Origin: a virus
Taxonomy: Duplodnaviria > Heunggongvirae > Uroviricota > Caudoviricetes
DNA length: 36,135 nucleotides
IMG/VR virus record: IMGVR_UViG_2563366968_000009
Reading direction: 5' to 3' (one strand)
Notes under the pieces: generated by a model
Databases searched by the model: none
What the model saw: only the letters and a program-made list of their open reading frames with translations
What the model was told of the DNA's origin: nothing
Translations under genes and position numbers: made by a program
In this document: in pieces, positions 1,447 through 33,617 of the stretch
How positions within the stretch are numbered: position 1 is the stretch's first letter
How the letters are laid out: each line of letters begins with the position of its first letter

Positions 1447-1533
1447 GCTGAAAAACATAACCCATAAAATGCTAGCTGTACCAGGAACCACCTCCTTAGC
1501 CTGTGTAATCTCCCTTACACGGGCTTATTTTTT
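1447..1533 (+). ncRNA. cyaR: Hfq-dependent small RNA CyaR (RyeE), about 87 nt; 3' terminator overlaps the prophage att core
   Basis: Sequence GCTGAAAAACATAACCCATAAAATGCTAGCTGTACCAGGAACCACCTCCTTAGCCTGTGTAATCTCCCTTACACGGGCTTATTTTTT matches my recollection of E. coli CyaR. It contains a C-rich anti-SD-like CCACCTCCTTA element and ends in a hairpin (CCTGTGTAA/TTACACGGG) followed by a T-run ending at 1533. Location between yegQ and ogr matches the E. coli cyaR position. Confidence 0.7.
1507..1533. other. attL: attL core, 27 bp AATCTCCCTTACACGGGCTTATTTTTT (reverse complement of the P2 att core as recalled)
   Basis: Identical 27-mer recurs at 33591..33617 (attR). Between the two copies lies a complete P2-like gene set with int adjacent to the right copy and ogr adjacent to the left copy. 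Confidence 0.85.
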
Positions 1534-1596
1534 ACGCGTAATACAATGAAATAAAAGGATTTATTTCTGGTCACGTCCACACATTGACCACATCGA

Positions 1597-1622
1597 CAAA
1601 AAAGCCCCTCGACTGAGGGGCT
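1597..1622 (-). terminator. Rho-independent terminator downstream of ogr
   Basis: Perfect inverted repeat GCCCCTC-GACT-GAGGGGC (1604..1621), preceded on the plus strand by AAAAAA (a U-run after the hairpin on the minus strand), 13 bp past the ogr stop codon. Confidence 0.6.
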
Positions 1623-1634
1623 TTCTGTTTGTAA

Positions 1635-1853
1635 TTACATCCACATAATTTGCTGCCCTGACGGCAACGGGTGCGGCCTTACGGCGTGGACTTCTCCCGG
1701 CTTCACGATGTATCGCTGTACCGACTCATAAGTGATGAACGTGGCGCTGCAATTCACGTTCTGACACTGGTGATAACGCTCTTTTGTCGTGTCAGTGATA
1801 TAGCGGCTTGTACGCGCATGTGCGGCATGCTGGCATAAAGGACAATGAAACAT
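1635..1853 (-). CDS. ogr: Ogr, zinc-finger late-gene transcription activator (72 aa)
   Basis: Protein MFHCPLCQHAAHARTSRYITDTTKERYHQCQNVNCSATFITYESVQRYIV... matches P2 Ogr from memory, with a C4 zinc finger. Start placed at the internal ATG preceded by GAGG 8-9 nt upstream rather than the longer track ORF (1635..1916). Confidence 0.85.
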   Translation of the reverse strand: MFHCPLCQHAAHARTSRYITDTTKERYHQCQNVNCSATFITYESVQRYIVKPGEVHAVRPHPLPSGQQIMWM

Positions 1854-1934
1854 CGCGAGCACCTCTTCCGGTTTTGTTGATGGTGCCATTTTAGTTAATT
1901 TATCCTTATAAAACAAACAGATAAAATAAAAACA

Positions 1935-3098
1935 TCACTCATCATCTTCTGTTTCGTACTCCACATCAGAAAGCCTAACCTCAAGCTCTAAGGACGTCGT
2001 GAAGCCGCTATTATTCAGAAAATGTGTCACCTTAGTGATTGTCCAGTCCTGCTCGTCTATGACGCGCTTAAAGCCTGACACTTTGACCGGCGTTTCCGTG
2101 TAAATATCTGCCCGACCAGTAGCCAGACTGATGGAGAACTCCGCAACGCCCCGTTGCAGCTTATCCCACTTTGCCTGAGCGGCGCGCATGGCCTGCGCTT
2201 TTGTGGCATATACCGTAGTCAGGGCAAAAACGTTGTCAGCTTCACCGGCCATGTATTCACCTTCGCGCGCTTCCGGTACTTTTGGCGCTTTCTTCTGCGT
2301 GACCGGTTTCGCTTTGGGGTGCTCCAGTGCGCGCAGGTGTTTCTCTTTCTTTTTGCGTTTCAGTTTTACCTTCTGCTTTTGCGGCTTCGGGTCTTTGGTG
2401 TGTAACCACTTTGCCGTTACGCCGGTGTAAGCTCCACGGTCAGCAATCGCAAAATGATGACGGTCGCCGTCGCTGCGGGTGATGGTAATCTGCGGGATTT
2501 TTTTACCGCTGGCCGTCACCCCCTGCCCCGCTTTGAGAAACAGCAGTTTTCCCATTTTTACCGACACCTCACCGCCGTTGCGTTCAGCAAGGCGGGTCAG
2601 GAATTTCGCATCAGACTCCTGCGACTGGTCGATGTGCGGAATTTTAATTCCGGCCAGTGACGGAGCGACACTGGCTTCCAGCCTGTTACGGGAGGCTATC
2701 GCCTCAACAATCGCGCCGAGCGTGGTGTCATGCCAGGAGCCTTCCCGGCGGGAATTAAGCGTCCCGCGGAAATCTGCACTCCGGGCGCGGATGGTAACCA
2801 CATCCGGCGCGCCCCGGTGTTCAACCTCATCAACGGTAAATTTCCCTTTGCATACCAGGGCAAAACCTTTCCAGCCGATATACACCGTCAGGACAGCGCC
2901 ACGAATCGGTAGCCCGACCTGCCCGTCGGCGTCGTTCAGTTCAATATCAAGCTGGTCAGCCTCAAAGCCCCGGTTATCCGTCAGGGTCATGCTCATCAGA
3001 CGGTCGCTGATATTGCCGGTAATATCCCTGCTGTCGAGCATCAGCATGTAATCCGGCGTCAGCGTACTGCCTGCATCAAATGTCAGCGCATCCAGCAT
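1935..3098 (-). CDS. D: Tail protein gpD (387 aa)
   Basis: Length and position (between ogr and U) match P2 gpD; overlaps the U stop codon by 1 nt. Confidence 0.85.
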   Translation of the reverse strand: MLDALTFDAGSTLTPDYMLMLDSRDITGNISDRLMSMTLTDNRGFEADQLDIELNDADGQVGLPIRGAVLTVYIGWKGFALVCKGKFTVDEVEHRGAPDVVTIRARSADFRGTLNSRREGSWHDTTLGAIVEAIASRNRLEASVAPSLAGIKIPHIDQSQESDAKFLTRLAERNGGEVSVKMGKLLFLKAGQGVTASGKKIPQITITRSDGDRHHFAIADRGAYTGVTAKWLHTKDPKPQKQKVKLKRKKKEKHLRALEHPKAKPVTQKKAPKVPEAREGEYMAGEADNVFALTTVYATKAQAMRAAQAKWDKLQRGVAEFSISLATGRADIYTETPVKVSGFKRVIDEQDWTITKVTHFLNNSGFTTSLELEVRLSDVEYETEDDE

Positions 3099-3577
3099 TA
3101 TCCCGCCTCCGTCATACCCGTGAATTTAGTCGCTATACTGCCAGCCTTACCGATGAGCGATTCCGCCTGTTTACCGATATCGCCATAAAGCGCGGCCAGT
3201 GATTCATCAACGCGGGTGAGCGACAGCGTAAAATCAATTTTCCGGGGTGTGCCGTCTGCAAAGAAAATACTCCCTGTTTCACTCACCTTGCTGATGACAT
3301 ACATACCGTAAATCATGCCGGTGCCATCCAGCAACGGCCACGCCCGGCCTTCCTCTGCCATCAGTCTGAGCGTGGTCATCGTCAGCTTGCCGCCGGTCAG
3401 TTCGGGATAAAGCACACCGGCAAGCGTCATGTTTTCCTCACCCACACCTAGAAACTGGTAGGCATCCCGTTTACCGATACGGGAATTTGACGGCCAGCGA
3501 TAATCTGATTCACGCTGCATGGTCTGGTGTGGCAGCGTCTGGCGCATAAAAACAAACATCCCTAACGCGAGCATCAT
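3098..3577 (-). CDS. U: Tail protein gpU (159 aa)
   Basis: Length and synteny match P2 gpU. Confidence 0.85.
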   Translation of the reverse strand: MMLALGMFVFMRQTLPHQTMQRESDYRWPSNSRIGKRDAYQFLGVGEENMTLAGVLYPELTGGKLTMTTLRLMAEEGRAWPLLDGTGMIYGMYVISKVSETGSIFFADGTPRKIDFTLSLTRVDESLAALYGDIGKQAESLIGKAGSIATKFTGMTEAG

Positions 3578-3591
3578 TTTTCATCACCTCC

Positions 3592-6039
3592 TTAACCGTC
3601 ATGCATCATGCTGGCACGGGCGCGCGCACGTTTATCCCGCTCGTATTTTTCGAGCGCATCCTGTAACTGGCGGTCAAGCTGTGTCCCCGGCGCAGTACCA
3701 CCCGTCAGGCTGATGTGATATTCGTTTTTACTCTGGTCCACATAAGAGCGGCCAGCCGGTGCCGTAACCGGCTGATAAGCCTGATAACCTGCATAAGAGC
3801 TGGTCGCCGGAATATAACCACCGGTGCCATACGTGGCGGCATGAGTTCTGGCGGCTGTCTGGTCAAGTGTGTCTGACTCTTTGTTGATGAACCCGAGCTT
3901 TTCCAGTACCCAGTCAATGCCGCTGCGTAATTTGTTGAACGCATTAAGCGGCAGCATCAGCGCGTCAGCCAGTGCCTGCCCGAACATGACGCCCGTGTCA
4001 CGGCAACGGTTCAGGGTGTCCTGGGTGGCTTTGACCGGGGCAATCAGGTTTTTAAACCACTGCCACGCAGCCTGTAACTTTTCACCCAGCCAGTCAAACA
4101 CCGGCTTAAGTGGCGTGAACAGTTCTCCCACCGGCGCAAATGCCGCTTTCAGCCCTTCCACCACACCGCCAAAGAATGCGCTGACAGGCTCCCAGTATTT
4201 ACGGATAAGTAACGCTCCGGCGACAATGGCGGCCACCACGGCCACTACCGGCCAGCTAATCGCCCCGATGGCCGTCATAACGGCACTGCCAACCGTCGTG
4301 AAAATTGCCCCCATTGCGCCTGCTGCAGCAATGATGGCATTGATGCCGGTGATAACCGGCCAGGCTACAAGACCAATGGCACCGATGATGCCAGTAAGCG
4401 CCAGTGCGCCACCGGCAATGAGGCCGATGGTTGACGCCAGTGATTTGTTTTTCTGGATCCAGCCGTCGAGTTTTAACACATACTTTGTGGCCGTCTGCGT
4501 GAGCTTACGCAGTGCGCCTTCCTGCTGGTCAAACAGGTCAGTCCCCACCGCCTCATAAGCGGACTGAAACTCTTTAAAGTCACCGCCGAGGTTGTCCTGC
4601 ATGATATTTACCAGCTCGGCGGTCTTCCCGTCTGAGGCTTTAAACGCAGCGGTCAGTTTGTCCAGCTTTCCGGTTGAGGCGGCAGTCATCAGCACGGCGG
4701 CGGCTGAGCTGGCCTCCTCCCCGAAAATAGTTTTCATGTATTCAGCCTGCTGGGCAGTACCGAGCCGGTTTTTCTCAAAACTGGCCTGCATTTCTTTCAG
4801 AATGGTAAATATTGGCCGGGTGTTTCCCTTGCTGTCTGAGGTTTTCACTCCAAGCTCTTTGAGTGCATCCCATGCTTTTCCCGTCGGTGCCTGCAGGCGG
4901 CTTAACACGGCACGGCTTCCCGTCCCCGCCATTGAGCCTGTGATTTTTGCATCATGCAGCGCCCCGACCATTGCGGCGGTTTCTTCAATGCTGACACCGG
5001 CATTTTTTGCCACAGGTGCGGCATAGGTCAGCGCATCGCTCATGCCGTCAAAATCGGCGGCGGTTTTGTTCATCGTCATGGAGAGAACATCCCCGATATG
5101 AGCGACCTTATCGTTTGAAAGCTGAAAGGCGGATTTCATCCCCATCAGCAGGGCGGCGTTTTCTTCCATCGTGCGGCGGTTCGCCAGCGCCATATTCAGC
5201 GTGACCGGCGTTGCCGCCTGAATGGCATCAACATCCCCACCCGCTTTCGCGATGATTATCTGTGCACCGGCCGCATCATCCGCCGAGGCGGCGGTATTGT
5301 CGCCGAGCTGGCGCGCCTGTTTGCGTAGTGCGGTCATTTCGGCGGAGTCTTTTGCCACTCCGAGCACGGCCTGCAATTCTGAGTTTTTCTGCGCAAACTC
5401 ATAACCGGGCATCAGCAACTTAACTCCGGCCATCGTTCCCGCCGCCGCAATCCCCACACCGGCAGCGCCCACTGAGGCCATATTTCCGGCCAGTTCCTTT
5501 CCGGCCTGATAACGCTGTTTTACTGCATTAAGTTTTGCCTGTTGCGCACTGACACGCGCCAGCGCGTCACGCTGCCGGTTAAGCTGTGCGGTGGTTTCAC
5601 TGATACGGTTTTTCAGTCCCTGCTCATCATGTGCAAGATTGCGGGTATTAATTCCCACAGCGGCCAGTTCCCGCTGCTGGCGCTTAACGGAATCCGTCAG
5701 GCGGTTATATTTCGCCTGTAAGTCCTCCGCCGCACGCTTTGCGGATTCCAGCACTTTCGCCTGAGCACGGGTCGGACGTTCAGTGTTTTTAAACTGTGTG
5801 GCAAGTGCTTCGGCTTCCTGCCGTGCCTTTTCAAGTGCATGACCAGTCACGGCAAGCTGTGCGCTGGTCTTGCGAAATCCCTCAATACGGGATGCGTGAC
5901 CGTTCAGCTCGCGCAGTGATTTTTGTGTTTCCCGGATATCCCCCGACAGCGACTTACTCGCTGTGCGGATGGATTTAAACGGGCGGGATGCCTGGTCAAC
6001 AGCCCTGAGCAATACCTGTAATTTTACATTGTTACTCAT
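3592..6039 (-). CDS. T: Tail tape measure protein gpT (815 aa)
   Basis: Long Ala/Gly-rich, coiled-coil-rich protein with a hydrophobic central segment; 815 aa as in P2 gpT; follows E/E'. Confidence 0.9.
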   Translation of the reverse strand: MSNNVKLQVLLRAVDQASRPFKSIRTASKSLSGDIRETQKSLRELNGHASRIEGFRKTSAQLAVTGHALEKARQEAEALATQFKNTERPTRAQAKVLESAKRAAEDLQAKYNRLTDSVKRQQRELAAVGINTRNLAHDEQGLKNRISETTAQLNRQRDALARVSAQQAKLNAVKQRYQAGKELAGNMASVGAAGVGIAAAGTMAGVKLLMPGYEFAQKNSELQAVLGVAKDSAEMTALRKQARQLGDNTAASADDAAGAQIIIAKAGGDVDAIQAATPVTLNMALANRRTMEENAALLMGMKSAFQLSNDKVAHIGDVLSMTMNKTAADFDGMSDALTYAAPVAKNAGVSIEETAAMVGALHDAKITGSMAGTGSRAVLSRLQAPTGKAWDALKELGVKTSDSKGNTRPIFTILKEMQASFEKNRLGTAQQAEYMKTIFGEEASSAAAVLMTAASTGKLDKLTAAFKASDGKTAELVNIMQDNLGGDFKEFQSAYEAVGTDLFDQQEGALRKLTQTATKYVLKLDGWIQKNKSLASTIGLIAGGALALTGIIGAIGLVAWPVITGINAIIAAAGAMGAIFTTVGSAVMTAIGAISWPVVAVVAAIVAGALLIRKYWEPVSAFFGGVVEGLKAAFAPVGELFTPLKPVFDWLGEKLQAAWQWFKNLIAPVKATQDTLNRCRDTGVMFGQALADALMLPLNAFNKLRSGIDWVLEKLGFINKESDTLDQTAARTHAATYGTGGYIPATSSYAGYQAYQPVTAPAGRSYVDQSKNEYHISLTGGTAPGTQLDRQLQDALEKYERDKRARARASMMHDG

Positions 6040-6459
6040 TCGTGTTTCCGCTTCGCCGGAGCGCCTTTTCGCGCCATGTGATGAGTTCGGTCAGGCTCAT
6101 GGGATACAGTTCTGATGGCGGCCAGTGAAATATCACTGCCACATCCGCCATCAGGTCATCGACCGAGAGATTTTTCGGAAACGTTACTGCACCGAGTTCG
6201 GCGACAAAAAACCGACCACCTTACCGGCCAGCGCCACAAGGTCAGGCAGCTCCAGCGCGGCGACCTCCTGCTCAGTCAGCATCGGTGCCGTCATGCGCGG
6301 CAGCACTTTAATCAGTGCATCGACTTCGGAGTTTGCGACCGCAGCCAGACTGACACCGCGCAGCGTCCCGGCATTGGGTTTCATCAGCGTGACCTGTTCG
6401 ATAACCTGCTCACCACGCTTGACCGGATTGTCCAGGGTAATCACATTTTCTTTGTTCAT
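6032..6459 (-). CDS. E+E': gpE+E' fusion produced by programmed -1 ribosomal frameshift (142 aa predicted)
   Basis: Hand translation: mRNA reads ...GGT TTT TTG TCG...; after a -1 slip at T.TTT.TTG the reading frame continues for 57 codons to a TAA at 6032..6034, overlapping the T start codon. Total of 85 + 57 = 142 aa equals the P2 E+E' length. Confidence 0.75.
6184..6459 (-). CDS. E: Tail assembly chaperone gpE (91 aa)
   Basis: 91-aa ORF immediately upstream of T, as in P2; contains a slippery TTTTTTG 19 nt before its stop codon. Confidence 0.85.
   Translation of the reverse strand: MNKENVITLDNPVKRGEQVIEQVTLMKPNAGTLRGVSLAAVANSEVDALIKVLPRMTAPMLTEQEVAALELPDLVALAGKVVGFLSPNSVQ
6205..6211 (-). 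promoter_or_regulatory. Slippery heptamer TTTTTTG (on minus strand) for the E/E' -1 frameshift
   Basis: Plus-strand CAAAAAA at 6205..6211 gives TTTTTTG on the coding strand, in the frame T.TTT.TTG relative to E. Confidence 0.7.
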
Positions 6460-6515
6460 GGTTTTCTCACTTCTGAATCAGGGTTAACCGGTCAGCCAGG
6501 CTGACCGGATGAAAA

Positions 6516-7034
6516 TCACAGGCCGATATTGCGGCGGTGTTGCTCCAGCCGGTCGACGCCGTTCACCTTCTCAATCATGTTGATGGTGTCAATTTCGACC
6601 AGCTCCTTACCGTCCATCGTCAGCCGGAAATAGGTGCAGACCACGGAGATTTTCGACTCGGTGTCTTCTCCCTGTTTACCCTCGCCGGTGTCGATTTCTT
6701 TCTGACGGCCACGCATGACCACTTCGACGGCCACCGTTTCGCCGGTATCGTCACGCTGGTAAGAGCCTGCAAAACGAATCGGCACGGCATCCACACCGGT
6801 TGCGGCGTAAAGTTCCCAGATAACCGAATCCGGGAAGCCCCCGAGCGACCACTCCATTGACAGCGCATCGTCATCAAGGCCGAGGTCTACCGGTGCGCTG
6901 CCGTTCATCCCCGCACCGCGATAGTTTTCGAGCTTACGGGTCAGTTTTGGCAGCGTGACGGACTTCGCGACGCCCTGATAGCTGTAGCCGTTCAGAAAGA
7001 CGTTCATTAACTTGAGTTTGCGCGGCATTGCCAT
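6516..7034 (-). CDS. FII: Tail tube protein gpFII (172 aa)
   Basis: Length and synteny match P2 FII. Confidence 0.85.
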   Translation of the reverse strand: MAMPRKLKLMNVFLNGYSYQGVAKSVTLPKLTRKLENYRGAGMNGSAPVDLGLDDDALSMEWSLGGFPDSVIWELYAATGVDAVPIRFAGSYQRDDTGETVAVEVVMRGRQKEIDTGEGKQGEDTESKISVVCTYFRLTMDGKELVEIDTINMIEKVNGVDRLEQHRRNIGL

Positions 7035-7046
7035 CGGTCAGACTCC

Positions 7047-8237
7047 TTAATTGCTGTTAACCGAGGTGACCAGATTTGCCAGGTATTTATCGGTAATACG
7101 CTGGCGCAGGGTCAGGTTTTCAAGAGGAGGCACCGGGGTATAGTCGTAGTCGATATACAGTTTTCCGGCCTTGAGGGTTTCCGCATCGTTGGATTCTTCG
7201 CTGAACCAGCAGGTCGCATCCACGATATAGCCGTTTGTTTTCAGCTCACGGAATTTGGCATTGATACCGTCAACGATGTCGCGAATCAGCGTTGCGGTGA
7301 TGGGCTTGTCCACCGCCCACATGTGCGCCTCAGCCATCGTGTCGGCCAGCACCTGCGCGGTGCGGGTGTAGTTTTCAAAGAGGAACAGCGGGTCATCAGA
7401 GCAGGTACGGTTACCCCAGAAGCGGAAACCGTCGCGGCGAATCAGCGTAGTGACGCCTGACTCGTTAAGCAGGTCAGCATCAGTGCCGGACTCCTGCAAA
7501 TCCCAGAATACAGATGCGCTGATGCCGGTAACACCGTTTACCCCGACGTTGGACAGCGTTTTATGCCAGCCCTGCTCCTGGTCGATTTTAGCGCGCAGAC
7601 CCAGCGCACGGGCGGTGGCATACGCGGTGGCGGTGGTGCTGGTGACCGTATCCCATGCGAGGAAATCCGGCCAGATGACCATCAGCTCACGCTGGCTGAA
7701 ATTCTGGCGGTAGGCTTTCACCTCGGAAATGGTTTTACAGCCCCATGCGCTGATATACCCGAAAGCGCGCAGCTTCTGACAGACAGATGCCAGTGCAACA
7801 GCCACCTCTTTGGTGTCCAGTCCCGGTACGCCGAGAATACGCGGTTTAACACCGGTTACCGACTCCGCCGCCAGCAGGGCTTTCAGTCCGGTGTACTGAC
7901 CGTTTTCGTCGGTGGTGCCGATGATATTGGAAACGGTCTGCGCAAGTTTCGTTTCTTCGTCGTCGCCGGTGCCGTCTTCAACACGCACGACAACGGTGAC
8001 CGGTTTTGACTGGTCAGCGATGGCCTGCAACGACGCCGCCAGCGTGCCTTTTTTACCAGCCTTTGCAATTGCGCTCTGCACATTGGTAATCAGCACCGGT
8101 TTATTGAGGGGGAAGGTTTCCGCATCCGCATCGCTGGCCGTGCAGACCATGCCGACAATGGCAGTGGATACGGTGGAAATGACGCGGGTGCCGTCGTTAA
8201 TCTCCAGCACCTGCACGCCGTGATGATAGTCACTCAT
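7047..8237 (-). CDS. FI: Contractile tail sheath protein gpFI (396 aa)
   Basis: Length and synteny match P2 FI. Confidence 0.9.
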   Translation of the reverse strand: MSDYHHGVQVLEINDGTRVISTVSTAIVGMVCTASDADAETFPLNKPVLITNVQSAIAKAGKKGTLAASLQAIADQSKPVTVVVRVEDGTGDDEETKLAQTVSNIIGTTDENGQYTGLKALLAAESVTGVKPRILGVPGLDTKEVAVALASVCQKLRAFGYISAWGCKTISEVKAYRQNFSQRELMVIWPDFLAWDTVTSTTATAYATARALGLRAKIDQEQGWHKTLSNVGVNGVTGISASVFWDLQESGTDADLLNESGVTTLIRRDGFRFWGNRTCSDDPLFLFENYTRTAQVLADTMAEAHMWAVDKPITATLIRDIVDGINAKFRELKTNGYIVDATCWFSEESNDAETLKAGKLYIDYDYTPVPPLENLTLRQRITDKYLANLVTSVNSN

Positions 8238-8331
8238 CCGTTTAACTCCGTGGTTAATGGGTGCAACTATTTTCTGTTGTGCGAAGCATGAGACGCTATT
8301 TGACCTGGCTGGTCAGTGAATGAAACAACAG

Positions 8332-8361
8332 ATAAAGAAAAGACGGGCAATCAGCCCGTCT
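8332..8361 (-). terminator. Putative terminator at the 3' end of the cargo operon
   Basis: Hairpin AGACGGG-CAATCAG-CCCGTCT (8341..8361) followed on the minus strand by a U-rich tract (CUUUUCUUUAUC). A second hairpin CGGGGGAG-AAAAAAC-CTCCCCCG at 8412..8434 lies just 3' of the stop codon. Confidence 0.45.
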
Positions 8362-8448: not shown

Positions 8449-9498
8449 TTAACTACATGAATCAATGATGTTTTTCACAAGCTTATTTATTTCAGATTCA
8501 TTAGTGCCAAATTCACCCGCTTTAAAATTAATACCTCGCGCTGCAAGATTTCTTTTTATTTTACTTACTTCACTCAGCATAAAGTCATAATTTAACGTTT
8601 TTTCTTTAATGCCCTTTGAATATATTACAGGGAAGGCTTTCATTAATGCCGCATATCCTGTGAGTTTACTTAAATAATATTCCCTTGGTGTATTCCACTC
8701 AACTGGATAGACATTGCTAATAGCATTAAAATAATTCAATATTATTTTTTGAATTACAGCGTCATTCTCTTCGATAAAATAATCGCGGAATATACACTGA
8801 TTATTTGGCGTTAATGGCAGATTCATTTTTAACATTCTTGCATCATCATCAGGTTTTTTTGAAATATGTTGGATAAGATATTTAATGAAAGTGCTTTGTG
8901 ATAATGATGCATTATCTTGGTTTATTTCCTTTTTCCCAAGCATTTTTAGCTTTTTATAAAAAGGGGAATCAGGATTACTGTTTATTCCTCTCGCGATTTC
9001 GTGGCATGTTTTTTGTGGACTCCTGCGTTCTGCAAGCGAAAATAAATCATATACAATTGATGGATTTACACGAGTTTGTTTACTATTAATAATTGAGAAA
9101 ACATAGGCTTTTTCTTCATCAGTAAGATCAAACATTAAAACAACAGGTAGTTCAAAAAGTTTAGCATTAGAGGAATTTTTAATTCCCCATAATCTGTGTT
9201 GACCATCGATAACATCACCTATAACCACTTCAGACTCAAAGTAAAAATAGGTATCATCCATTTTTAAATTGGATGAATCATCGACGGAAATTATGATCGG
9301 CGTTGGAAAAGTCGCATCCGGCTCACTAGTGTACTTTGCGATTTCTGAAACTCTTGATGATGAAATATCCCTTTGCACACCAAATTCGAAATCTCTGCGA
9401 CGATCAACTCTAACTATATCGAGCAAGTCAATGGCTCTTATTGATGTTAAATAGAAAGTACCGATTGGTTGATTAACTTCAATATATTTCAACTTCAT
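8449..9498 (-). CDS. DGQHR-motif protein (DndB-like, predicted ParB/Srx-fold), 349 aa; cargo gene 2
   Basis: Motif VIDGQHRLWG at residues 96-105 plus an N-terminal Q-R dipeptide (VQRD, residues 41-44), as in DndB-type proteins. AAGGAG Shine-Dalgarno 7 nt upstream; start ATG overlaps the stop of the upstream membrane gene (ATGA). Visibly AT-rich compared with flanking tail genes. Confidence 0.7.
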   Translation of the reverse strand: MKLKYIEVNQPIGTFYLTSIRAIDLLDIVRVDRRRDFEFGVQRDISSSRVSEIAKYTSEPDATFPTPIIISVDDSSNLKMDDTYFYFESEVVIGDVIDGQHRLWGIKNSSNAKLFELPVVLMFDLTDEEKAYVFSIINSKQTRVNPSIVYDLFSLAERRSPQKTCHEIARGINSNPDSPFYKKLKMLGKKEINQDNASLSQSTFIKYLIQHISKKPDDDARMLKMNLPLTPNNQCIFRDYFIEENDAVIQKIILNYFNAISNVYPVEWNTPREYYLSKLTGYAALMKAFPVIYSKGIKEKTLNYDFMLSEVSKIKRNLAARGINFKAGEFGTNESEINKLVKNIIDSCS

Positions 9499-15137: not shown

Positions 15138-15141
15138 GGTT

Positions 15142-25373: not shown

Positions 25374-25395
25374 GCCGCCTGCGGGCGGCTTTTTT
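25374..25395 (+). terminator. Rho-independent terminator after Q
   Basis: GCCGCC-TGCG-GGCGGC hairpin followed by TTTTTT, 6 bp after the Q stop codon. Confidence 0.7.
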
Positions 25396-25707: not shown

Positions 25708-27540
25708 TCAAACAGAGCCCTGTTCAAATACAGTATCAAAATATGGTAGGAGAGGATAAGCACACAGAAAGAAAATCAGGATGCATGCATATGTCGTTGT
25801 TTCATCGTAACAAGCATTAGTATATAAATTACCATGTGCTAATTTATGTCTTAAGGTTGCCCCACTCTTTCTATTAAAAAGAACATCGATAGTTAAAACA
25901 AGATTCTTAGAAAAGATACTTTCCAAATCATCTCTGCATTTATCTAGAAGCTGAGAAATACTTGTTGACTCCTCTAATCCCTTATCCAAATATCTAGTAG
26001 CATCCTTTCCACTAAGCTCATAATAATAACGAACCATACCTTCCATTTGTGGTATTAAAAGATAAGCTGCACTGATGTAATCTCCCTGCCATAATTTGTA
26101 AAAGCCCAAATTAAAAATCTCCCTAAACTCCGGCTTGACAATTGGACTAGTTGTAACTAATTTAACGAATGTTGACAACGTCAAGCCATGTTCTTGAGAA
26201 AGTACATAGCGAGCAGGTTCAAAGACACCGTTTACAAAAATCTTATGAGTAATCTCGAAATTTCTTAGATATTGATCAATAACAACATCATCACTCATAT
26301 CTTTTTTATTATCCAACGGCGGGATTGTATATACCTTACGCCCACTCTCATCATTAATTTCTGTTCCAACAAAACTAGAGAATAAACTTTTTTCTGATAA
26401 TCTTAAAACTTGCTCCCTCATGCTTTCAATATTTTCAATCGGTGTTTCACGCATTAAAACTTTGAATATATCGGGCAAAGAACGCCCCGTCAGTTTTTTT
26501 TCACTTTCAGCAACCAAGTCACTAATATCAATAGAATGGCTTAAAGTGACATATTCACTCCTTACTTCTTCTCTCAAATTAGCAAGTTGTTCCTTTAAAT
26601 CTTCTATCTGTTGGCTATCACCACCGTACTGTCTTAATTCAGAGATAGCTGTTCTTAACCAAGAGATCTTACCCATATTATCAGGTCGATCTGTTGCAAC
26701 TTTAATAGTAATATTTGCAGATGCCAGTTTACATCTCTTGGCACGTTCATACTCACCATTTTTTTCATAAATAACTGCACTTGTCATATAAAGTGATTTT
26801 ACAGCATCATAATATTTTTTATCTTTATGCTGCTCAGCCATCTTCTCAGCATTTTCCGCATACTGCAGATTATACCCATCAAAATCACGCACCATAAACC
26901 AAGTCAAATTATTGAAACCTTCAAAGATTAATCTTTCATTTTGAATACTATAAAGAGAATGAATGGCATTTTTAATCGCCATGTTTCCTTCTGATTTTCT
27001 AGGGTAGACCATTTTATTAATGTGCAAAGCCCTAGCAATATAATCACGAGCAAAAATAAAGCAATTTAAATCACTTTCATCCATGCTTTCGTTTTTTATT
27101 ATTAGTTTTTCAATTGCTATATTTAGCATTTCAGCATAGGAATCAATTGCTTTAATTGCCACGTCTTTATTTTTCCGGTTATTACACCAAACAACATCAT
27201 ATATTCTTGATAACAAAAATGGATTGGTTATTTTTTGAGAAACATATAAAAGACAGTCATTCACCTGCTCATCAAAATCTTCAGGCAATATTGATCTTTT
27301 ATTACCCCAAATCATTTGGGGTTCAAATGATGGAGTGTTGTTAACAACTTGCAAATTGAAACTATATAGCATACCAAAAAGAGATGCTAATTTTTTCTCT
27401 TTGGGGTTTCCTGATGATTCAGCAATCCCATCCAGATATTTTTTTATTTTATGTGCATGAAATGTAACTGGTATATGCATAAAAACACTATAATCTAGTG
27501 TTTCAAGCTCTTCCCTTGTAAGAACAAAGATATCATTCAT
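25708..27540 (-). CDS. Large standalone protein (about 610 aa) with C-terminal HEPN-like R-x4-H motif; cargo at the tin/old position
   Basis: C-terminal ...NRKSGATLRHKLAHGNLY... contains R-x4-H. Start placed at the ATG at 27540 (MNDIFVLTREE...) with AAGGTG 6 nt upstream; the track ORF starts at an upstream TTG (27642). Visibly AT-rich; occupies the slot between cos and gene A. Confidence 0.6.
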   Translation of the reverse strand: MNDIFVLTREELETLDYSVFMHIPVTFHAHKIKKYLDGIAESSGNPKEKKLASLFGMLYSFNLQVVNNTPSFEPQMIWGNKRSILPEDFDEQVNDCLLYVSQKITNPFLLSRIYDVVWCNNRKNKDVAIKAIDSYAEMLNIAIEKLIIKNESMDESDLNCFIFARDYIARALHINKMVYPRKSEGNMAIKNAIHSLYSIQNERLIFEGFNNLTWFMVRDFDGYNLQYAENAEKMAEQHKDKKYYDAVKSLYMTSAVIYEKNGEYERAKRCKLASANITIKVATDRPDNMGKISWLRTAISELRQYGGDSQQIEDLKEQLANLREEVRSEYVTLSHSIDISDLVAESEKKLTGRSLPDIFKVLMRETPIENIESMREQVLRLSEKSLFSSFVGTEINDESGRKVYTIPPLDNKKDMSDDVVIDQYLRNFEITHKIFVNGVFEPARYVLSQEHGLTLSTFVKLVTTSPIVKPEFREIFNLGFYKLWQGDYISAAYLLIPQMEGMVRYYYELSGKDATRYLDKGLEESTSISQLLDKCRDDLESIFSKNLVLTIDVLFNRKSGATLRHKLAHGNLYTNACYDETTTYACILIFFLCAYPLLPYFDTVFEQGSV

Positions 27541-27656
27541 CGTTTTCACCTTTTTCAGTATAAATTTGCACACATTATTAGCAACATAATTATCAATAGT
27601 TAACACATGCAGATAAACAGCAATTTTACTATTATGCAACAAATTAAATCAGATGT

Positions 27657-29939
27657 TTATTGCTCTGAATAACAATAAAACCAACTCCACTCATCAGCGA
27701 CCGGATACGTAAATTTTTTCCCGTTGTAATCTACGGTCGCACCACGCGCCAGCGCCTCAAGCTCCCATCGCTGCGGCCTGATACCCTTTTGAGCAAGGTC
27801 AACACGGATACGGGTAATTTGCATTCGTTCCGACCTGGTCAGTCTGGCCGATGGTGCCATTTCATATGGTTTTAACGGGCTTCCGTTTCTTTGCTGACGG
27901 TTTTGCGTTCTCCGACCGTGTTTTAATGCGCCTCTGAGCGCCCTCACAACCTCCGGGTCATTCCATTCTATAACCCCGTCATCAACCAGATTAAGCACTG
28001 CTGCAGCGTGCTCAGACGGTGTGGGAGCCGGTAACGAAGCATCACTACCGGTGAGCTTTCCACAGTTATTGACAGGACTCCGAGGCGCGGCGATGCCGCT
28101 TTTTAAAGTCAAAGGCTCAACGACCGGAACTTTCGGAACAATGCGCCAGTCCGTCGTTCTGGTGATATGAATATGACGCGCGCCGAGATGCGGCGCGTAA
28201 ATGCCGACCACTCTCTCGACTTCTTCCTCGTACTCGTTAACTTCATCCGACGGGCTACGGGCAACCCTGACAGTCTGACAATCGCGCGGGACATTTGCCC
28301 CACCCTGCGCGCTGATATACAACGCAAAATCACCACTGTCTGCGGCGGCGCGTGCAGCCTCGACGCGTTCGTCAAACTCATCAGCAATGCTGACGCCGCG
28401 AGGCAATTTGCGTAGTTCACGGTAAGCGCCCATTGTCGGCAGGCCAACCGTTTTAAATTGCGGGATACGCCACGTTGACGCCCATGCGGTAACAGCCGCT
28501 GCAGTGTCTTTCAGCGGCCTGCCGGTATCGTTATCGAGCTGACCATCCAGTGCATAGCCGTCGATGTTTTTTGAGATGTATTTCGCGATATACCCCGCAG
28601 CACCGCCCCGGTTAAGGTGTTTTGCCTGAAAACGGTTTCGCGCAGCTCCTCTTTCGTCGCCATCCTCTTTGAGTGCGTAGCGACGCATGATTTCGATAAT
28701 CTGGTTACGCTGGCGCGGATTACAAAAAAGCATCATATGCCAGTGCGGCGTTCCGTCGTGGTGTGGCTCGACGACACGCAAACCGTAGACCTGTAAATCA
28801 TTATCCTTGAATGCCGTGCGCATCAGGCTCCAGATATGGCAGAGATAACGCTGCGCATCCTTTGGATTAAATGCCTCATCGTTCCAGCCGTGATTTAGCT
28901 GGACGGTTTTACTTTCGCCTTTTCCGACCTGACGTGTCGGGTGATACTTTGACGGCGCGGTCAGCGTGATAAACATCCCCACATCACCCTCTGCTGCGGC
29001 GTAACGCTCAATACCGGCAATGGTGTTCATCAGCTCCATCCGGCGAATTTCAGGATTAGAAATACTGCCCATCACCTTACTGATAAGGTCGATGCGCTCG
29101 CCGGTTTCCCTGTTTTCAAGGTCACACGATTTAAGAAATTCCAGATTTGCCTGGCGGCGTGCACGTACATCACGAATGGCATGTTTACTGGCATAAGGAG
29201 AACGGTCTTTATTCACCTCCCCGACAGCAATCAGTAACGCCTCATGCCAGCGCATACGCTGGCCTTTAAGCTGATGAGTCCACCACTCATCGTTAAACAG
29301 ACGGGCAATGGCAGAATATGCCTGCCTCGTGGTCATCTGTCCTTTACGGTATTTTTTCCAGTAGAGAGGGGAAATATTGAAAGCTCGTGCAGCGCCAGCA
29401 ACATGACCATACAGGTGATCCTGAGCCTCATCCGTAAACAGTGATTCTTTTTCGCCATGCGCATCCACCCAGGCATCGCTGAGTTCCTCATACATCATGA
29501 AAAGCTGCGATGAGATACGGGCGGCAAACTTTTTCAGCTCCTTGTCATTCATTCCCGGCAGGCGCGCATAGTGGTCACGCTCTGCCAGAAACAGCAACGA
29601 CGCGTCGGTGTTCATTTCATGGCGCTGATTCACACGCTCAATGCGCGGCCATAAACGACGCTGAAAAGTGGATGTGAGGAAATAAAACCCGTGCACCGGG
29701 CTTTTATTGCGCCGGATGTAGTCATAGCGTGAAGTAAACAGCGAGCGCAAAAAGTAAGGCAGGCGGTTAATCGTGGATAAAACACCTTGCACCTGACGCA
29801 TCTCGTCACGTGTAAGGGGTCTTTCGCGCCCGACGGCCTCGCGTGGCGCGTTCCATGCATAAGCACCGGTAAACGTCTTACCGGTGCCTGCGGCAAATGC
29901 TGACGGAGGGACAAAACGCCCGGAGGCTTTAACGACCAT
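27657..29939 (-). CDS. A: Replication initiation protein gpA (rolling-circle nickase), about 760 aa
   Basis: Protein matches P2 gpA from memory (MAVKASGRFVPPSAFAAGTGK...; here MVVKASGRF...). Start placed at the internal ATG; the track ORF (to 29981) is 14 codons longer. The exact start is uncertain. Confidence 0.8.
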   Translation of the reverse strand: MVVKASGRFVPPSAFAAGTGKTFTGAYAWNAPREAVGRERPLTRDEMRQVQGVLSTINRLPYFLRSLFTSRYDYIRRNKSPVHGFYFLTSTFQRRLWPRIERVNQRHEMNTDASLLFLAERDHYARLPGMNDKELKKFAARISSQLFMMYEELSDAWVDAHGEKESLFTDEAQDHLYGHVAGAARAFNISPLYWKKYRKGQMTTRQAYSAIARLFNDEWWTHQLKGQRMRWHEALLIAVGEVNKDRSPYASKHAIRDVRARRQANLEFLKSCDLENRETGERIDLISKVMGSISNPEIRRMELMNTIAGIERYAAAEGDVGMFITLTAPSKYHPTRQVGKGESKTVQLNHGWNDEAFNPKDAQRYLCHIWSLMRTAFKDNDLQVYGLRVVEPHHDGTPHWHMMLFCNPRQRNQIIEIMRRYALKEDGDERGAARNRFQAKHLNRGGAAGYIAKYISKNIDGYALDGQLDNDTGRPLKDTAAAVTAWASTWRIPQFKTVGLPTMGAYRELRKLPRGVSIADEFDERVEAARAAADSGDFALYISAQGGANVPRDCQTVRVARSPSDEVNEYEEEVERVVGIYAPHLGARHIHITRTTDWRIVPKVPVVEPLTLKSGIAAPRSPVNNCGKLTGSDASLPAPTPSEHAAAVLNLVDDGVIEWNDPEVVRALRGALKHGRRTQNRQQRNGSPLKPYEMAPSARLTRSERMQITRIRVDLAQKGIRPQRWELEALARGATVDYNGKKFTYPVADEWSWFYCYSEQ

Positions 29940-30204
29940 ATGAGCCAAAAGCCTCTGAACAACGCTTGCTGAGTTGCTCAACCTGCGCGTTTAAATCAGC
30001 AAAAGACTTTGCGCTTCCGGTCAGAATATCGTGATGCATCAGGCCGGAAACGAGCTGGCTTAATTTCGGGTAATAACCAACCACCGCCAGCCATTCCTGA
30101 CCGGCGTTTTTACCACTTTCCGCTCTCTTTTTCTCGTGGAGAATAAACTGAAAGCTGTCACTGGTAACGACATAACGTTCGCCAATTTCAATACGAATAC
30201 TCAT
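29929..30204 (-). CDS. Small early-region protein (91 aa), P2 orf83-like
   Basis: ORF directly upstream of A in the same orientation; assigned by position only. Confidence 0.55.
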   Translation of the reverse strand: MSIRIEIGERYVVTSDSFQFILHEKKRAESGKNAGQEWLAVVGYYPKLSQLVSGLMHHDILTGSAKSFADLNAQVEQLSKRCSEAFGSYGR

Positions 30205-30425
30205 GCCGTTCTCCGGTAATGTTTGTTTTTTGCTTCAAAGACTGACTGACAGGAAACACAACGCGTGGCTGACGGATAAGCCGCACGACGGGCAGCAGGT
30301 ATTGGCGCGTCACACTCTTCGCAAACCAGCGCAGAAGCACCGCAATGTTTTACCCTTGCCGCGTTAATCTGGCGCTCCAGTAATTCAGCCTGTTGTTCCT
30401 GAATAAAATCTACGTTGTCCGGCAT
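30201..30425 (-). CDS. TraR/DksA-family C4 zinc-finger protein (74 aa), P2 orf82-like
   Basis: Cys pairs CEEC...CVSC with the spacing typical of TraR/DksA C-terminal zinc fingers; ATGA overlap with neighbours. Confidence 0.65.
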   Translation of the reverse strand: MPDNVDFIQEQQAELLERQINAARVKHCGASALVCEECDAPIPAARRAAYPSATRCVSCQSVFEAKNKHYRRTA

Positions 30426-30730
30426 TACCAGTTCCTTTTGTCGTTAAGGTTTTTAAATTCATCAGCGCAATAGCTGGCGATTTCTGTCGTTAATTTCGTC
30501 AGTTCATCCACGGAGGAGATTTGCTTGTGAAACACAGCGCGTTTAACAAGTAAATTGACCACATCAGACAGGAGATTTAATTCGTTCTGATAAATCGCGA
30601 TAACAGACTCAGTTATTTCGCGTTTTTCTTTATCAAGACCAAGTTGAATAAGAGATAAATCGCCATTTTTCATAACGGCGATTTTTAAGGCGTTATTCAG
30701 TAATACAACTGAACGAGAACAGAACATCAA
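30425..30730 (-). CDS. Small early-region protein (101 aa), P2 orf81-like
   Basis: Strong GGGGAGGTG Shine-Dalgarno 6 nt upstream of the ATG at 30730. Confidence 0.55.
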
Positions 30731-30951
30731 AGCACCTCCCCGCGAGACAATCCGATATTGTGAAATTTTTCCGACTCCTGACTGAGCAGCTCGACTATCT
30801 CCACGCGGGATAACTCCGCCTTTGTGATGTGGCGAATCATGGCGTCAAGATGAGAAGAAAAGCGCGTCGCTGCGTCGGCCTGTGCTTCGGTTCTGGCCTG
30901 TTGCAGCAGTAATGTGTATTTACCGCACTGATTTTCAGAAACTGTATGCAT
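30727..30951 (-). CDS. Small early-region protein (74 aa), P2 orf80-like
   Basis: Start placed at the ATG at 30951 (MHTVSENQ...) with GGAG 7 nt upstream; the track start at 30984 lacks a Shine-Dalgarno. Confidence 0.5.
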
Positions 30952-31014
30952 GACTTTCTCCAGGCAAAAAGAAGCCCCGCACAATTAAGTGCGTTAAAAA
31001 CTCTGGTTAATTAC

Positions 31015-31515
31015 TTAATGCAGATATTGCTCTGGTTTTACCGACGTCAGAATTGTCGGTGCATACTCAAACAGACTGAATAATTCACGTAATGCACGGA
31101 ATAAAGCATCACGCCAGTAACATGATTCTTCATTAATGCGCCAGTACGGCTGATTGAATTCTTTTTCTGTCAATCCCGCATGCATAAATAAAGTGCGACG
31201 CTGACTGACTGTTAAAAAACTAATATATGCATACTCACTCGCGCCAACCTGACGGCGTTTTGAGAATGCCCCACGCAATTCATCAATTGCACATACCAGT
31301 CGTTCACGTTCGACGTCGTTCATTTCTTCAAAACGCATCGTTGCGTGACGCTGTTTTAACTGAGCATGGAAGCAAACCGTTAACCGTTCGCGCTCCATCA
31401 TCTGATTATAATAATCACATGTCTCCTGCCAGCGAGGGACGGCCAGATGCTTACCAATTATCCGGCGCATAGCTGCTGGCTGTTTTTCAACGAGATTGAG
31501 CGTCATCACTGTCAT
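31015..31515 (-). CDS. B: Replication protein gpB (166 aa; helicase-loader-like)
   Basis: MTVMTLNLVEKQPAAMRRIIGKHLAVPRWQETCDYYNQMMERERLTVCFH... matches P2 B from memory. Confidence 0.85.
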   Translation of the reverse strand: MTVMTLNLVEKQPAAMRRIIGKHLAVPRWQETCDYYNQMMERERLTVCFHAQLKQRHATMRFEEMNDVERERLVCAIDELRGAFSKRRQVGASEYAYISFLTVSQRRTLFMHAGLTEKEFNQPYWRINEESCYWRDALFRALRELFSLFEYAPTILTSVKPEQYLH

Positions 31516-31682
31516 TTCCATACCCTCCGGCTTTTCAGAAAGGTCAGAGCCTTTTTTAACGGACTCTGTTTTTTGGTACGGATAATGATTCCCTTACGCC
31601 CCTTACCGTGGGTGATGGTGAAGTCAAACGCCCTGGGGCTTTCGTTACGCAGTAACTGAGCAATACAACGAGGCTCATTCAT
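31512..31682 (-). CDS. Small protein (56 aa), P2 orf78-like
   Basis: Short ORF between cox and B, as in P2; start chosen to give the 56-aa P2-like product. Confidence 0.5.
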   Translation of the reverse strand: MNEPRCIAQLLRNESPRAFDFTITHGKGRKGIIIRTKKQSPLKKALTFLKSRRVWK

Positions 31683-31692
31683 ACGGTTCTCC

Positions 31693-31968
31693 TTAACGTG
31701 GTTCACCGAGACCTAACCACATCAACCAGCCGTCACGAATCTCTTTAGGGCGGCTTTCATAAGCCAGTTTTAGTCCGTTATTCCATGCCGGAAGGTATAC
31801 CCAATATTCACCTGCACGACCTGAAGCTGATTGTGGATCGGTCATATCAATTACAGGCAGCTTTCCTTTATCGATCATCCGACGAACCGCTCCTGTCGAT
31901 TTTCCTATTAGTTTTGCGAACTCCTGATAAGGAATCGCATCAGTCATGAGTGTTACTTGCTTGCTCAT
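31693..31968 (-). CDS. cox: Cox (91 aa): excisionase / directionality factor and Pc repressor
   Basis: MSKQVTLMTDAIPYQEFAKLIGKSTGAVRRMIDKGKLPVIDMTDPQSASGRAGEYWVYLPAWNNGLKLAYESRPKEIRDGWLMWLGLGEPR matches P2 Cox from memory. Confidence 0.9.
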   Translation of the reverse strand: MSKQVTLMTDAIPYQEFAKLIGKSTGAVRRMIDKGKLPVIDMTDPQSASGRAGEYWVYLPAWNNGLKLAYESRPKEIRDGWLMWLGLGEPR

Positions 31969-32042
31969 GTTGTCCTCCAGCCCTCATGAATTGCGTTTAA
32001 TGCCTTATAATGCCTTTTAGTGCCCACATCCAAGCACTAAAC

Positions 32043-32079
32043 AATCTACATCTAAACCAAATACTATTGAGATCTAAAC
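32043..32079. promoter_or_regulatory. Pe/Pc switch region with direct-repeat operators ATCTAAAC (32050..32057 and 32072..32079, 22 bp apart)
   Basis: Two identical 8-mers spaced two helical turns apart between divergent cox and C, plus a related AATCTACA at 32043..32050. P2 repressor C is known to bind direct repeats spanning the early promoter. Confidence 0.5.
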
Positions 32080-32082
32080 ACC

Positions 32083-32382
32083 ATGTCAAACACGATAAGC
32101 GAGAAGATAGTCTTAATGCGAAAATCAGAGTATTTGAGCAGACAACAACTTGCTGATTTAACAGGGGTTCCGTATGGCACGCTGAGTTACTATGAAAGTG
32201 GTCGTTCAACACCTCCAACAGATGTCATGATGAACATCCTGCAGACCCCACAATTCACCAAATACACTTTATGGTTCATGACCAATCAGATCGCTCCTGA
32301 GTCCGGGCAAATTGCGCCCGCTCTCGCACACTTTGGGCAAAACGAAACAACGTCGCCCCACTCCGGTCAAAAGACTGGTTAA
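32083..32382 (+). CDS. C: Immunity repressor C (99 aa)
   Basis: MSNTISEKIVLMRKSEYLSRQQLADLTGVPYGTLSYYESGRSTPPTDVMMNILQTPQFTKYTLWFMTNQIAPESGQIAPALAHFGQNETTSPHSGQKTG matches P2 C from memory. Confidence 0.9.
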   Translation: MSNTISEKIVLMRKSEYLSRQQLADLTGVPYGTLSYYESGRSTPPTDVMMNILQTPQFTKYTLWFMTNQIAPESGQIAPALAHFGQNETTSPHSGQKTG

Positions 32383-32497
32383 CAATTCATCGTGAATATA
32401 TTCATTACAAGTGCCTACTATTGGTGGCTAAATTTCAGCCACCACGAAAAAAGCGATTAGTAGTCGCAAAAAAACACACCACTCGGAGGGTTTTCTG

Positions 32498-33511
32498 ATG
32501 GCAATCAAAAAACTCGATGATGGTCGATATGAAGTGGACATCCGCCCTACTGGACGTAATGGAAAACGCATCCGTAGGAAGTTTGATAAGAAAAGCGAAG
32601 CTGTCGCTTTCGAGAAATACACGTTGTACAACCACCACAATAAAGAATGGCTATCAAAACCAACAGACAAACGACGTCTGTCGGAACTGACACAGATCTG
32701 GTGGGATTTAAAGGGTAAACACGAAGAGCATGGGAAATCTAATCTTGGAAAAATTGAAATCTTCACAAAAATAACGAATGACCCATGCGCATTTCAAATC
32801 ACGAAATCCCTTATCAGCCAGTACTGCGCCACCCGAAGAAGTCAGGGTATTAAACCTTCGAGTATCAATCGTGATTTAACATGTATTAGCGGCATGTTTA
32901 CAGCCCTGATTGAAGCGGAGTTATTCTTTGGTGAGCACCCTATCAGAGGGACAAAGAGGCTTAAGGAGGAAAAACCAGAAACAGGCTATCTCACACAGGA
33001 AGAAATTGCCTTACTGCTTGCAGCACTTGACGGCGACAATAAAAAGATTGCGATTCTTTGCCTGAGTACAGGAGCACGTTGGGGAGAAGCAGCTCGTTTG
33101 AAAGCAGAAAATATCATCCATAACCGCGTCACGTTTGTTAAAACGAAAACAAACAAACCACGCACCGTCCCGATCTCAGAGGCTGTTGCCAAAATGATCG
33201 CGGATAACAAACGAGGTTTTTTATTCCCTGATGCTGATTACCCTCGCTTCAGACGAACAATGAAAGCAATAAAACCGGATTTGCCAATGGGGCAAGCCAC
33301 ACATGCACTAAGGCACAGCTTTGCCACTCATTTCATGATTAATGGAGGAAGTATTATTACGCTACAACGGATACTAGGTCACACGCGGATTGAGCAAACG
33401 ATGGTTTACGCTCATTTTGCGCCAGAGTACCTTCAGGACGCCATTTCTCTTAATCCGCTAAGAGGTGGTACTGAGGCCGAGAGTGTCCACACAGTGTCCA
33501 CAGTAGAGTAA
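32498..33511 (+). CDS. int: Tyrosine integrase (337 aa)
   Basis: Length and position next to attR match P2 Int; C-terminal R...HxxR...Y-type catalytic region (ATHALRHSFATH...MVYAHF); GGAGGG Shine-Dalgarno. Confidence 0.9.
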   Translation: MAIKKLDDGRYEVDIRPTGRNGKRIRRKFDKKSEAVAFEKYTLYNHHNKEWLSKPTDKRRLSELTQIWWDLKGKHEEHGKSNLGKIEIFTKITNDPCAFQITKSLISQYCATRRSQGIKPSSINRDLTCISGMFTALIEAELFFGEHPIRGTKRLKEEKPETGYLTQEEIALLLAALDGDNKKIAILCLSTGARWGEAARLKAENIIHNRVTFVKTKTNKPRTVPISEAVAKMIADNKRGFLFPDADYPRFRRTMKAIKPDLPMGQATHALRHSFATHFMINGGSIITLQRILGHTRIEQTMVYAHFAPEYLQDAISLNPLRGGTEAESVHTVSTVE

Positions 33512-33590
33512 CGTTTAAGGGCTTTCAGTGGTAATTTATGCCGCTCAAACCCGCATTGTACCGTTGAAAGCCCCTACTGTTGACACCCTA

Positions 33591-33617
33591 AATCTCCCTT
33601 ACACGGGCTTATTTTTT
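33591..33617. other. attR: attR core, 27 bp identical to attL
   Basis: Exact repeat of 1507..1533, 80 bp downstream of int. Confidence 0.85.

Follow-up and report, generated by a model that had tools for sequence, protein, structure and literature searches.

The 36,135-nucleotide stretch of DNA analyzed here (IMG/VR record IMGVR_UViG_2563366968_000009; the whole stretch is referred to below as the window) is a segment of an Escherichia coli chromosome, and its positions 1507-33617 constitute, with a probability that we place at about 0.85, a complete prophage of the genus Peduovirus (P2-type) bearing P2's own immunity and integration module. As read from sequence, the essential replication, packaging, head, tail and lysis genes, the late activator, the immunity switch and every known cis-acting site of this element are intact, and we put the probability that the prophage can yield infectious particles at roughly 0.75-0.8. 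The element would thus very likely be a live temperate phage of the P2 immunity type. Particles can leak from a phage of this sort, its host can gain immunity to P2, P4-like satellites can find support in it, and two defense-type cargo loci can move with it, together with a recombinant tail-fiber tip. The value of recognizing it lies mostly in annotation and strain handling: the prophage backbone is ordinary, the only lead with some novelty is a rare pair of cargo genes in the slot termed Z/fun, and beyond that pair the current view of P2 biology is unchallenged.

At each end of the element lies the 27-bp P2 attP core (AAAAAATAAGCCCGTGTAAGGGAGATT, minus strand) without a mismatch, at 1507-1533 and at 33591-33617, and the outer edges of the two copies coincide exactly with the limits proposed in a first-pass annotation of this DNA; by our arithmetic, an exact 27-mer repeat would be expected by chance about 4e-8 times in 36 kb. 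The prophage so delimited is 32,084 bp long, inside the 29.2-36.0 kb span of deposited Peduovirus genomes, and the order of features across the window is yegQ/trhP, cyaR, prophage, yegR and yegS. The left core (1507-1533) forms the 3' half of the cyaR terminator, such that integration regenerates cyaR with phage-derived sequence directly downstream. The E. coli W genome paper includes 'cyaR RNA' among the insertion sites of P2 and gives 'ogr-D'' for K-12 (PMC3032704). The integrase of the element is 100% identical to that of P2, and both cores and the Int arm sites match P2 exactly, with the left core lying within cyaR; these features correspond to the P2 integration module and are consistent with an Int-mediated recombination in which the 27-bp attP core would have exchanged with the identical 3' end of cyaR, between yegQ/trhP and yegR. 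This location is the classical P2 site locI. The first-pass annotation had also set int next to attR, in keeping with the orientation of the window; int does adjoin an att core, but by the P2 convention the ogr-side junction (1507-1533) is attR and the int-proximal junction (33591-33617) is attL. The IHF site of the P arm departs from P2 at five positions, and we considered whether this reflects damage; the attP of phages P22H1 and 10W is identical there, and the idea was rejected. An attP rebuilt from both junctions is one base off the attP of these two phages.

To assess the backbone, all 42 annotated coding sequences of P2 (NC_001895) were translated and searched against the window by tblastn, the integrity of open reading frames (ORFs) was judged from P2-equivalent starts, and residues were compared with those of nine reference Peduoviruses. 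Every essential P2 gene returned one full-length match at 92.6-100% amino acid identity (Q, P, O, N, M, L, X, Y, K, R, S, V, W, J and I, and likewise FI, FII, E, T, U, D, ogr, int, C, cox, B and A), with identity reaching 100% for C, Cox, Int, Ogr and gpP. All 37 of the 37 backbone ORFs begin with ATG and contain one terminal stop, and all align without gaps to at least one of the nine references, except H (two gaps). Frameshifts, premature stops and insertion sequence (IS) elements were sought in every P2 backbone gene and none was found; the earlier proposal of a full-length backbone free of frameshifts and premature stops is thus borne out by tblastn, ORF checks and reference alignments, and the absence of IS elements can be added to it. 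By their start and end coordinates, neighboring genes are arranged as they are in P2, indicating that the gene overlaps, which had also been called intact, are conserved (for example P/Q at 24334, D/U at 3098 and V/W at 15486-15489). The E/E' slippery region is identical to that of P2 (site within 6192-6216), and the fused E+E' frame is open and differs only by S29N.

The gene order and the full head, packaging, tail and lysis gene set are those of the P2 family, as judged from colinear blastn, tblastn and Pfam matches (Phage_cap_P2, Phage_term_smal, Terminase_5/6N/6C, Phage_portal and Phage_GPA among them). The element shares with P2 its gene order, 37 backbone genes at 92-100% amino acid identity, and an identical att core, cos 19-mer, ori, O1/O2 and E/E' site. 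It differs from P2 in lacking orf30, fun(Z), orf91, tin and old, none of which gave a tblastn match in the window, and in having instead a DGQHR pair in the Z/fun slot, a DUF7380/DUF4209 protein (PDC-S39) in the TO (old/tin) slot, and a new H C-terminus with its own assembly protein; P2 G was matched weakly (replaced) and P2 H over its first 207 residues (C-terminus replaced). Further differences are the pV and pF alleles, the IHF region (5 nt) and the overall size (32,084 bp versus 33,593 bp for P2). By megablast, many P2-like phages align with about 85% of the late region at 96-97% identity, and with the early region at 97-98%. Coding sequence accounts for 93% of the element, and the non-coding stretches of at least 100 bp are all known regulatory or cargo-flank regions.

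Codon comparison with P2 gives 451 synonymous and 103 non-synonymous differences (6920 codons; N/S ratio 0.23), a pattern that indicates purifying selection. Private residues, defined as those that differ from all nine references where these agree, number 28 of 8807 and are mostly conservative. Their sole cluster lies in gpA, at residues 632-718. We considered decay as its cause and rejected it: the OkiPb01678 prophage has the same residues with the same neighboring TO cargo, and six of the seven private gpA changes constitute a linked allele also present there, which indicates an allele linked to the TO module rather than decay. The gpA protein is 96.7% identical to that of P2 and matches Phage_GPA, and the 31-nt ori nick region inside A (28066-28096) is identical to P2; both are as predicted for rolling-circle replication.

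The remaining cis-acting sites are likewise those of a P2-type phage. A terminator after B matches P2 exactly, as do the other terminators (Table 1), and the ogr promoter has one mismatch to P2, which falls outside the -10 and -35 hexamers. An Ogr/Delta zinc-finger activator is encoded together with predicted Ogr-dependent late promoters. Two of these promoters, pV and pF, left the P2 activator sites unmatched and were considered as lost; this was rejected, as their alleles are identical or near-identical to those of PhiR44_1, P22H1, YpM50 and D8. The pV region differs from that of P2 because the orf30 slot is empty, and PhiR44_1, which shares the pV allele, has been grown on E. coli C. For cos, the first-pass annotation had claimed identity with P2. 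The 19-nt cohesive end is indeed identical, and a cos-type mode of packaging is predicted from it; the right flank (25500-25537) contains two substitutions, with 28 of 30 positions identical. A 68-amino-acid ORF (25407-25613, minus strand; phrog_17350, E = 2e-39) spans cos, so that linear virion DNA would hold it in two pieces and only circular or prophage DNA would hold it entire; it is annotated as partial genes at the genome ends in several Peduovirus records.

Comparison with individual phages shows that the element is a mosaic. P22H1, 10W, P24A7b and PhiR44_1 have a backbone 96-97% identical to it in nucleotides across some 85% of the late region, and each shares particular modules: 10W has identical C and Cox; P22H1 has the same Cox (no C gene is annotated in the P22H1 record); both match the variant IHF region of attP; PhiR44_1 and P22H1 have the pV allele; and P24A7b matches the H tip at 99% and the assembly protein at 98%. 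None of the four, however, unites all of the modules, and none has the DGQHR pair of the Z/fun slot. The tail fiber is itself composite: residues 1-673 of H are 95.5% identical to 10W (P24C9 is similar), residues 674-872 are 99% identical to P24A7b, and the junction falls near residue 673, just ahead of the Collar domain, pointing to a recombinant protein. An H of the same length, at 99.5-99.7% identity, is present in the AREA_502 prophage.

One could ask whether this mosaic arose in assembly, by the collapse of reads from two or more P2-like prophages into a chimera. E. coli genomes often hold several such prophages (a median of 2 matching places per genome), pairs of them are known to collapse in assembly (PMC3032704), and the mosaic is unique. 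The individual segments nonetheless have long independent counterparts, in the AREA_502 prophage for 1-17971 and in the OkiPb01678 prophage for 24333-31946, and reading frames remain open across all segment junctions. We therefore regard an artefact as extremely improbable.

The same insertion site holds relatives of the element in various states of preservation. The MG1655 annotation lists there cyaR, the cryptic prophage PR-X (ogrK and the pseudogene yegZ) and yegR, with cyaR overlapping the PR-X edge, and K-12 retains, as the first-pass annotation had stated, only a remnant, which corresponds to window 1507-2147. The K-12 locus aligns at 97.3% over window 1-2147 (cyaR, left core, ogr and the 3' end of D); it differs in that window 2148-33599 is deleted, with the alignment resuming at 33600, inside the right att core. 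Where the deletion closes (K-12 locus 4780-4900), the 3' part of D runs directly into 18 nt from the distal end of the right core. K-12 thus has a complete core in cyaR and a fragment of the second, inside which the deletion ends. The AREA_502 prophage, at yegQ/cyaR, is 99.0% identical and colinear over window 1-17971, a span that takes in the host flank as well as the Z/fun cargo and H, but carries ISEc12 in lysA (its 29382-32408; window ~17967-17971) and an Old-like AAA ATPase in the TO slot. The OkiPb01678 prophage occupies the same site, has the same TO cargo and gpA allele and is colinear with window 24333-31946, but carries ISEc12 at the P/Q junction (its 5264-7851; window ~24333-24339). 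These insertions suggest recurrent IS-mediated decay of this prophage lineage. ISEc12, of the IS21 family, is also listed under the match in the relatives S88, MS7163, N53 and N62. Across 5426 complete E. coli genomes, which also underlie the counts below, P2-type switch regions occur in 405, and the yegQ-ogr-D junction is at least 80% covered in 1128, a number that may include K-12-type remnants.

Given this background, a competing account is that the element is cryptically defective ('grounded'), with a missense or regulatory change or an incompatible fiber blocking function, and that it is kept for its cargo and immunity. Several observations weigh against a functional phage or are in keeping with such a state. 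Functionality is here deduced from sequence, and undamaged ORFs are no proof that a phage works. Of the private missense changes, about 22 are left unexplained, among them V P105S, V M143T, T V717F, J E74K, O T231N and O T252S. The right flank of cos has changed from ATTAAAACCGCCCC, which is conserved between P2 and P4, to ATTCAAACCGACCC, two substitutions that are shared with 569R9. One base between the att core and the Cox boxes is private relative to P2, P22H1 and 10W, and another private base lies 4 nt upstream of the cox ATG. The assembly and host range of the predicted mosaic fiber are a further concern, and the exact combination of modules is absent from all complete RefSeq E. coli genomes (where the closest match reaches 91% coverage at 98.2% identity) and from all deposited phages, such that it has no direct virion precedent. 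Same-site relatives are, moreover, decaying by ISEc12, and K-12 shows the end point of this process. Against a defective state stand the lack of any disrupted gene, the low ratio of non-synonymous to synonymous differences, and the finding that most of the variant regulatory alleles are common to isolated phages or to many other prophages. In about 52 complete genomes the variant cos flank accompanies the TO-slot gene, at no less than 99% identity, and it is also present in 569R9, behind a different integrase at cpxP; this distribution argues, indirectly, that the variant can be packaged. On balance we consider a cryptic defect unlikely, and favor a prophage able to produce particles.

The immunity switch bears on how such particles would be released. 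The C-cox switch named in the first-pass annotation is present: C and Cox are both identical to P2 at the amino acid level, C and cox together show 0 of 576 nucleotide differences (31693-32382), and operators O1 and O2 are exact. The Pe-to-O2 stretch and the Pc stretch contain one mismatch each, both outside the hexamers. The size of the repressor, the two 8-bp direct repeats on either side of the Pe -10, the divergent Pc and the exact Cox boxes at att all correspond to the P2 immunity class, in which Cox acts both as counter-repressor and as excision factor. The 114-bp switch has four transitions relative to P2, none in operators or hexamers, and one of them makes the cox Shine-Dalgarno region GGAGGA. 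We considered whether four changes here, versus none in C and cox, might reflect a selected switch mutation, but set this aside, since the PSJ-22 and S88 prophages have three of these changes as well and the operators and hexamers are all unaffected; as judged by these comparisons, the switch differences are treated as natural polymorphism.

The accompanying suggestion that the prophage is probably inducible did not hold. C is a protein of 99 amino acids that matches Pfam helix-turn-helix families only and has no S24 autocleavage domain; a tblastn search of the window with the CI, Apl, CII and Tum proteins of phage 186 returned nothing credible (best E values of 0.005-7, from short fragments in unrelated genes), and no LexA box of the form CTGT-N8-ACAG occurs in the 36-kb window. 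With neither a cleavable domain in C nor a Tum-type antirepressor, DNA damage is not expected to induce the prophage. The alternative is that the element responds to SOS like 186 or the P2-like prophage of E. coli HS, with damage freeing an antirepressor or cleaving the repressor. Some 'P2-like' prophages are indeed inducible by mitomycin or trimethoprim, which requires a LexA-controlled tum (PMC11195241), and both cargo slots of the present element encode proteins without assigned function. However, its repressor is that of P2, a phage not inducible by the SOS response (PMC8440029), and the cargo architectures (membrane, DGQHR and DUF7380) are not DinI- or Tum-like. Phage 186 (Eganvirus) and the tum-bearing E. 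coli HS prophage share with the element related late genes, a rolling-circle A and an integrase homolog (37% identical), but differ in switch type: neither the 186 set of a 192-amino-acid CI with Apl and CII nor a LexA-repressed tum operon is found here. SOS induction is thus very unlikely, and mitomycin or UV treatment would probably fail. It follows that a negative induction test would be no evidence of a defect.

We therefore return to a P2-type prophage whose release would be independent of DNA damage. In the lysogen, C expressed from Pc would repress Pe by binding the direct repeats O1 and O2. In P2, even inactivating C is said to give poor yields (the 'Abortive induction of bacteriophage P2' reportedly described by Bertani in 1968, as cited in PMC2995052). 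Int comes from the Pc transcript, which Cox shuts off. Particles would form spontaneously but rarely, in cells where Cox and Int are present together, or following derepression in trans by a P4-type epsilon, upon which the prophage would become a helper for P4-like satellites. Low spontaneous release or derepression by such an antirepressor is what would be expected from this switch, and 'inducible' should be replaced, on the present sequence comparisons, by 'non-SOS-inducible, spontaneously released, P4-derepressible'. Any particles formed would carry the AT-rich Z/fun and TO slots and the recombinant tail-fiber tip between strains.

Competence as a P4 helper, which had been proposed on the strength of cos, is plausible in silico and on better grounds than cos alone. 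P4 epsilon binds C, and this binding needs Thr67 (PMC2995052), a residue that the C protein of the element keeps. Besides an epsilon-sensitive C, a helper would need a Cox that can activate P4 PLL, late promoters that respond to Delta/Ogr, a compatible cos and a gpN responsive to Sid. Identity to P2 is 100% for the helper-relevant proteins C, Cox and Ogr, the cos 19-mer is the same as in P4, and gpN, with 99.2% identity to its P2 counterpart, differs at I130V, F142L and R193H.

Table 1. Coordinates of the host, prophage, regulatory and cargo features in the window, with the evidence for each.
Feature	Position	Strand	Evidence
Host gene yegQ/trhP, left flank	1..1362	+	NCBIfam TrhP equivalog, 876 bits; 99.3% identity to E. 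coli genomes
Host small RNA gene cyaR (RyeE)	1445..1530	+	Rfam RF00112, 100.7 bits versus gathering score 47, full length
att core, ogr-proximal junction	1507..1533	-	Exact 27-mer of P2 attP core
P arm: IHF site	1532..1565	-	5 mismatches to P2; identical to attP of P22H1 and 10W
P arm: Int arm site	1569..1596	-	Exact P2 match
ogr/F-operon terminator	1601..1624	-	Exact P2 match
ogr, late-gene activator	1635..1853	-	100% amino acid identity to P2 Ogr; Pfam Ogr_Delta; promoter 1 mismatch
F operon tail genes D, U, T, E/E+E', FII, FI	1935..8237	-	96-100% amino acid identity to P2, full length
pF late promoter region, non-P2 allele	8238..8340	-	0-3 mismatches to AREA_502, P22H1, PhiR44_1, D8
Z/fun slot cargo pair	8449..10103	-	GC 32%
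DGQHR/DndB-like protein	8449..9498	-	TIGR03187 DGQHR, 161.9 bits; Pfam DndB
Membrane protein with 4 transmembrane segments	9495..10103	-	Segments read from translation; stop overlaps DGQHR gene start
Lambda-gpK-type tail fiber assembly protein	10499..11077	-	Pfam Caudo_TAP; 97.9% to P24A7b
Tail fiber H, 872 amino acids	11077..13695	-	Pfam Phage_tail_fib, Collar
Baseplate genes I, J, W, V	13706..16121	-	92.6-100% amino acid identity to P2, full length
pV late promoter	16122..16187	-	Identical to P22H1, PhiR44_1, 569R9, YpM50; TGT-N10-ACA dyad
O operon S, R, lysC, lysB, lysA, K, Y, X, L, M, N, O	16188..22388	-	95-100% amino acid identity to P2, full length
Divergent pO/pP late promoters	22389..22561		Activator site 22468-22498 exact to P2; whole region 1 mismatch
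Terminase large subunit P and portal Q	22562..25368	+	P 100%, Q 98.3% amino acid identity to P2
tQ terminator	25374..25395		Exact P2 match
cos, 19-nt cohesive end	25538..25556	-	Exact match to P2 cosL/cosR; equals P4 end
TO (old/tin) slot cargo: DUF7380 + DUF4209 protein	25708..27642	-	PADLOC candidate PDC-S39, E = 1e-84; Pfam DUF7380; phrog_5183; GC 33%
Early operon A, orf83, orf82, orf81, orf80, B, orf78, cox	27657..31968	-	96.7-100% amino acid identity to P2
Immunity switch	31969..32082		Pe with operators O1/O2 at 32050-32089; Pc at 31986-32011
Repressor C	32083..32382	+	100% amino acid identity to P2; Pfam HTH_3 only
Integrase int	32498..33511	+	100% amino acid identity to P2; Pfam Int_N and Phage_integrase
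P' arm: Int arm site	33477..33503	-	Exact P2 match
P' arm: Cox boxes, 74 nt	33501..33574	-	Exact P2 match
att core, int-proximal junction	33591..33617	-	Exact P2 match
Host right flank: yegR, yegS, start of next host gene	33618..36135		YegS equivalog, 476 bits; yegR-yegS 95% to K-12

The two cargo slots contain genes that P2 lacks. The Z/fun pair occurs in 3 of the 5426 genomes, and no phage record among those searched carries it. Pairs of this type are conserved from Enterobacterales to Flavobacterium; they recur in Flavobacterium, at about 40% identity, next to McrBC and an SLFN/AlbA_2 gene, and in a Serratia island with toxin-antitoxin genes, a second assembly of which shows an integrase nearby. 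PADLOC has no model for the membrane protein, and a search of solved structures with this 202-amino-acid cargo protein gave no match. On the basis of its predicted products and neighborhoods, the pair is a candidate defense module. It might, more specifically, form an undescribed two-gene anti-phage (abortive-infection) system, with two translationally coupled genes, the DGQHR protein (ParB-fold) serving as sensor of foreign or modified DNA and the membrane protein as effector, an assignment that we offer tentatively and at somewhat less than even odds. The vehicle that takes the pair from strain to strain would be a P2 phage that is intact and transmissible.

Hotspots such as these two slots are well documented for P2 in earlier work (PMC9122126; PMC13586616). 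The protein in the TO slot has a likely true start that gives it a length of about 610 amino acids. The TO module is at least 80% covered in 55 of the 5426 genomes, and among deposited phages its cargo is found in 569R9 only.

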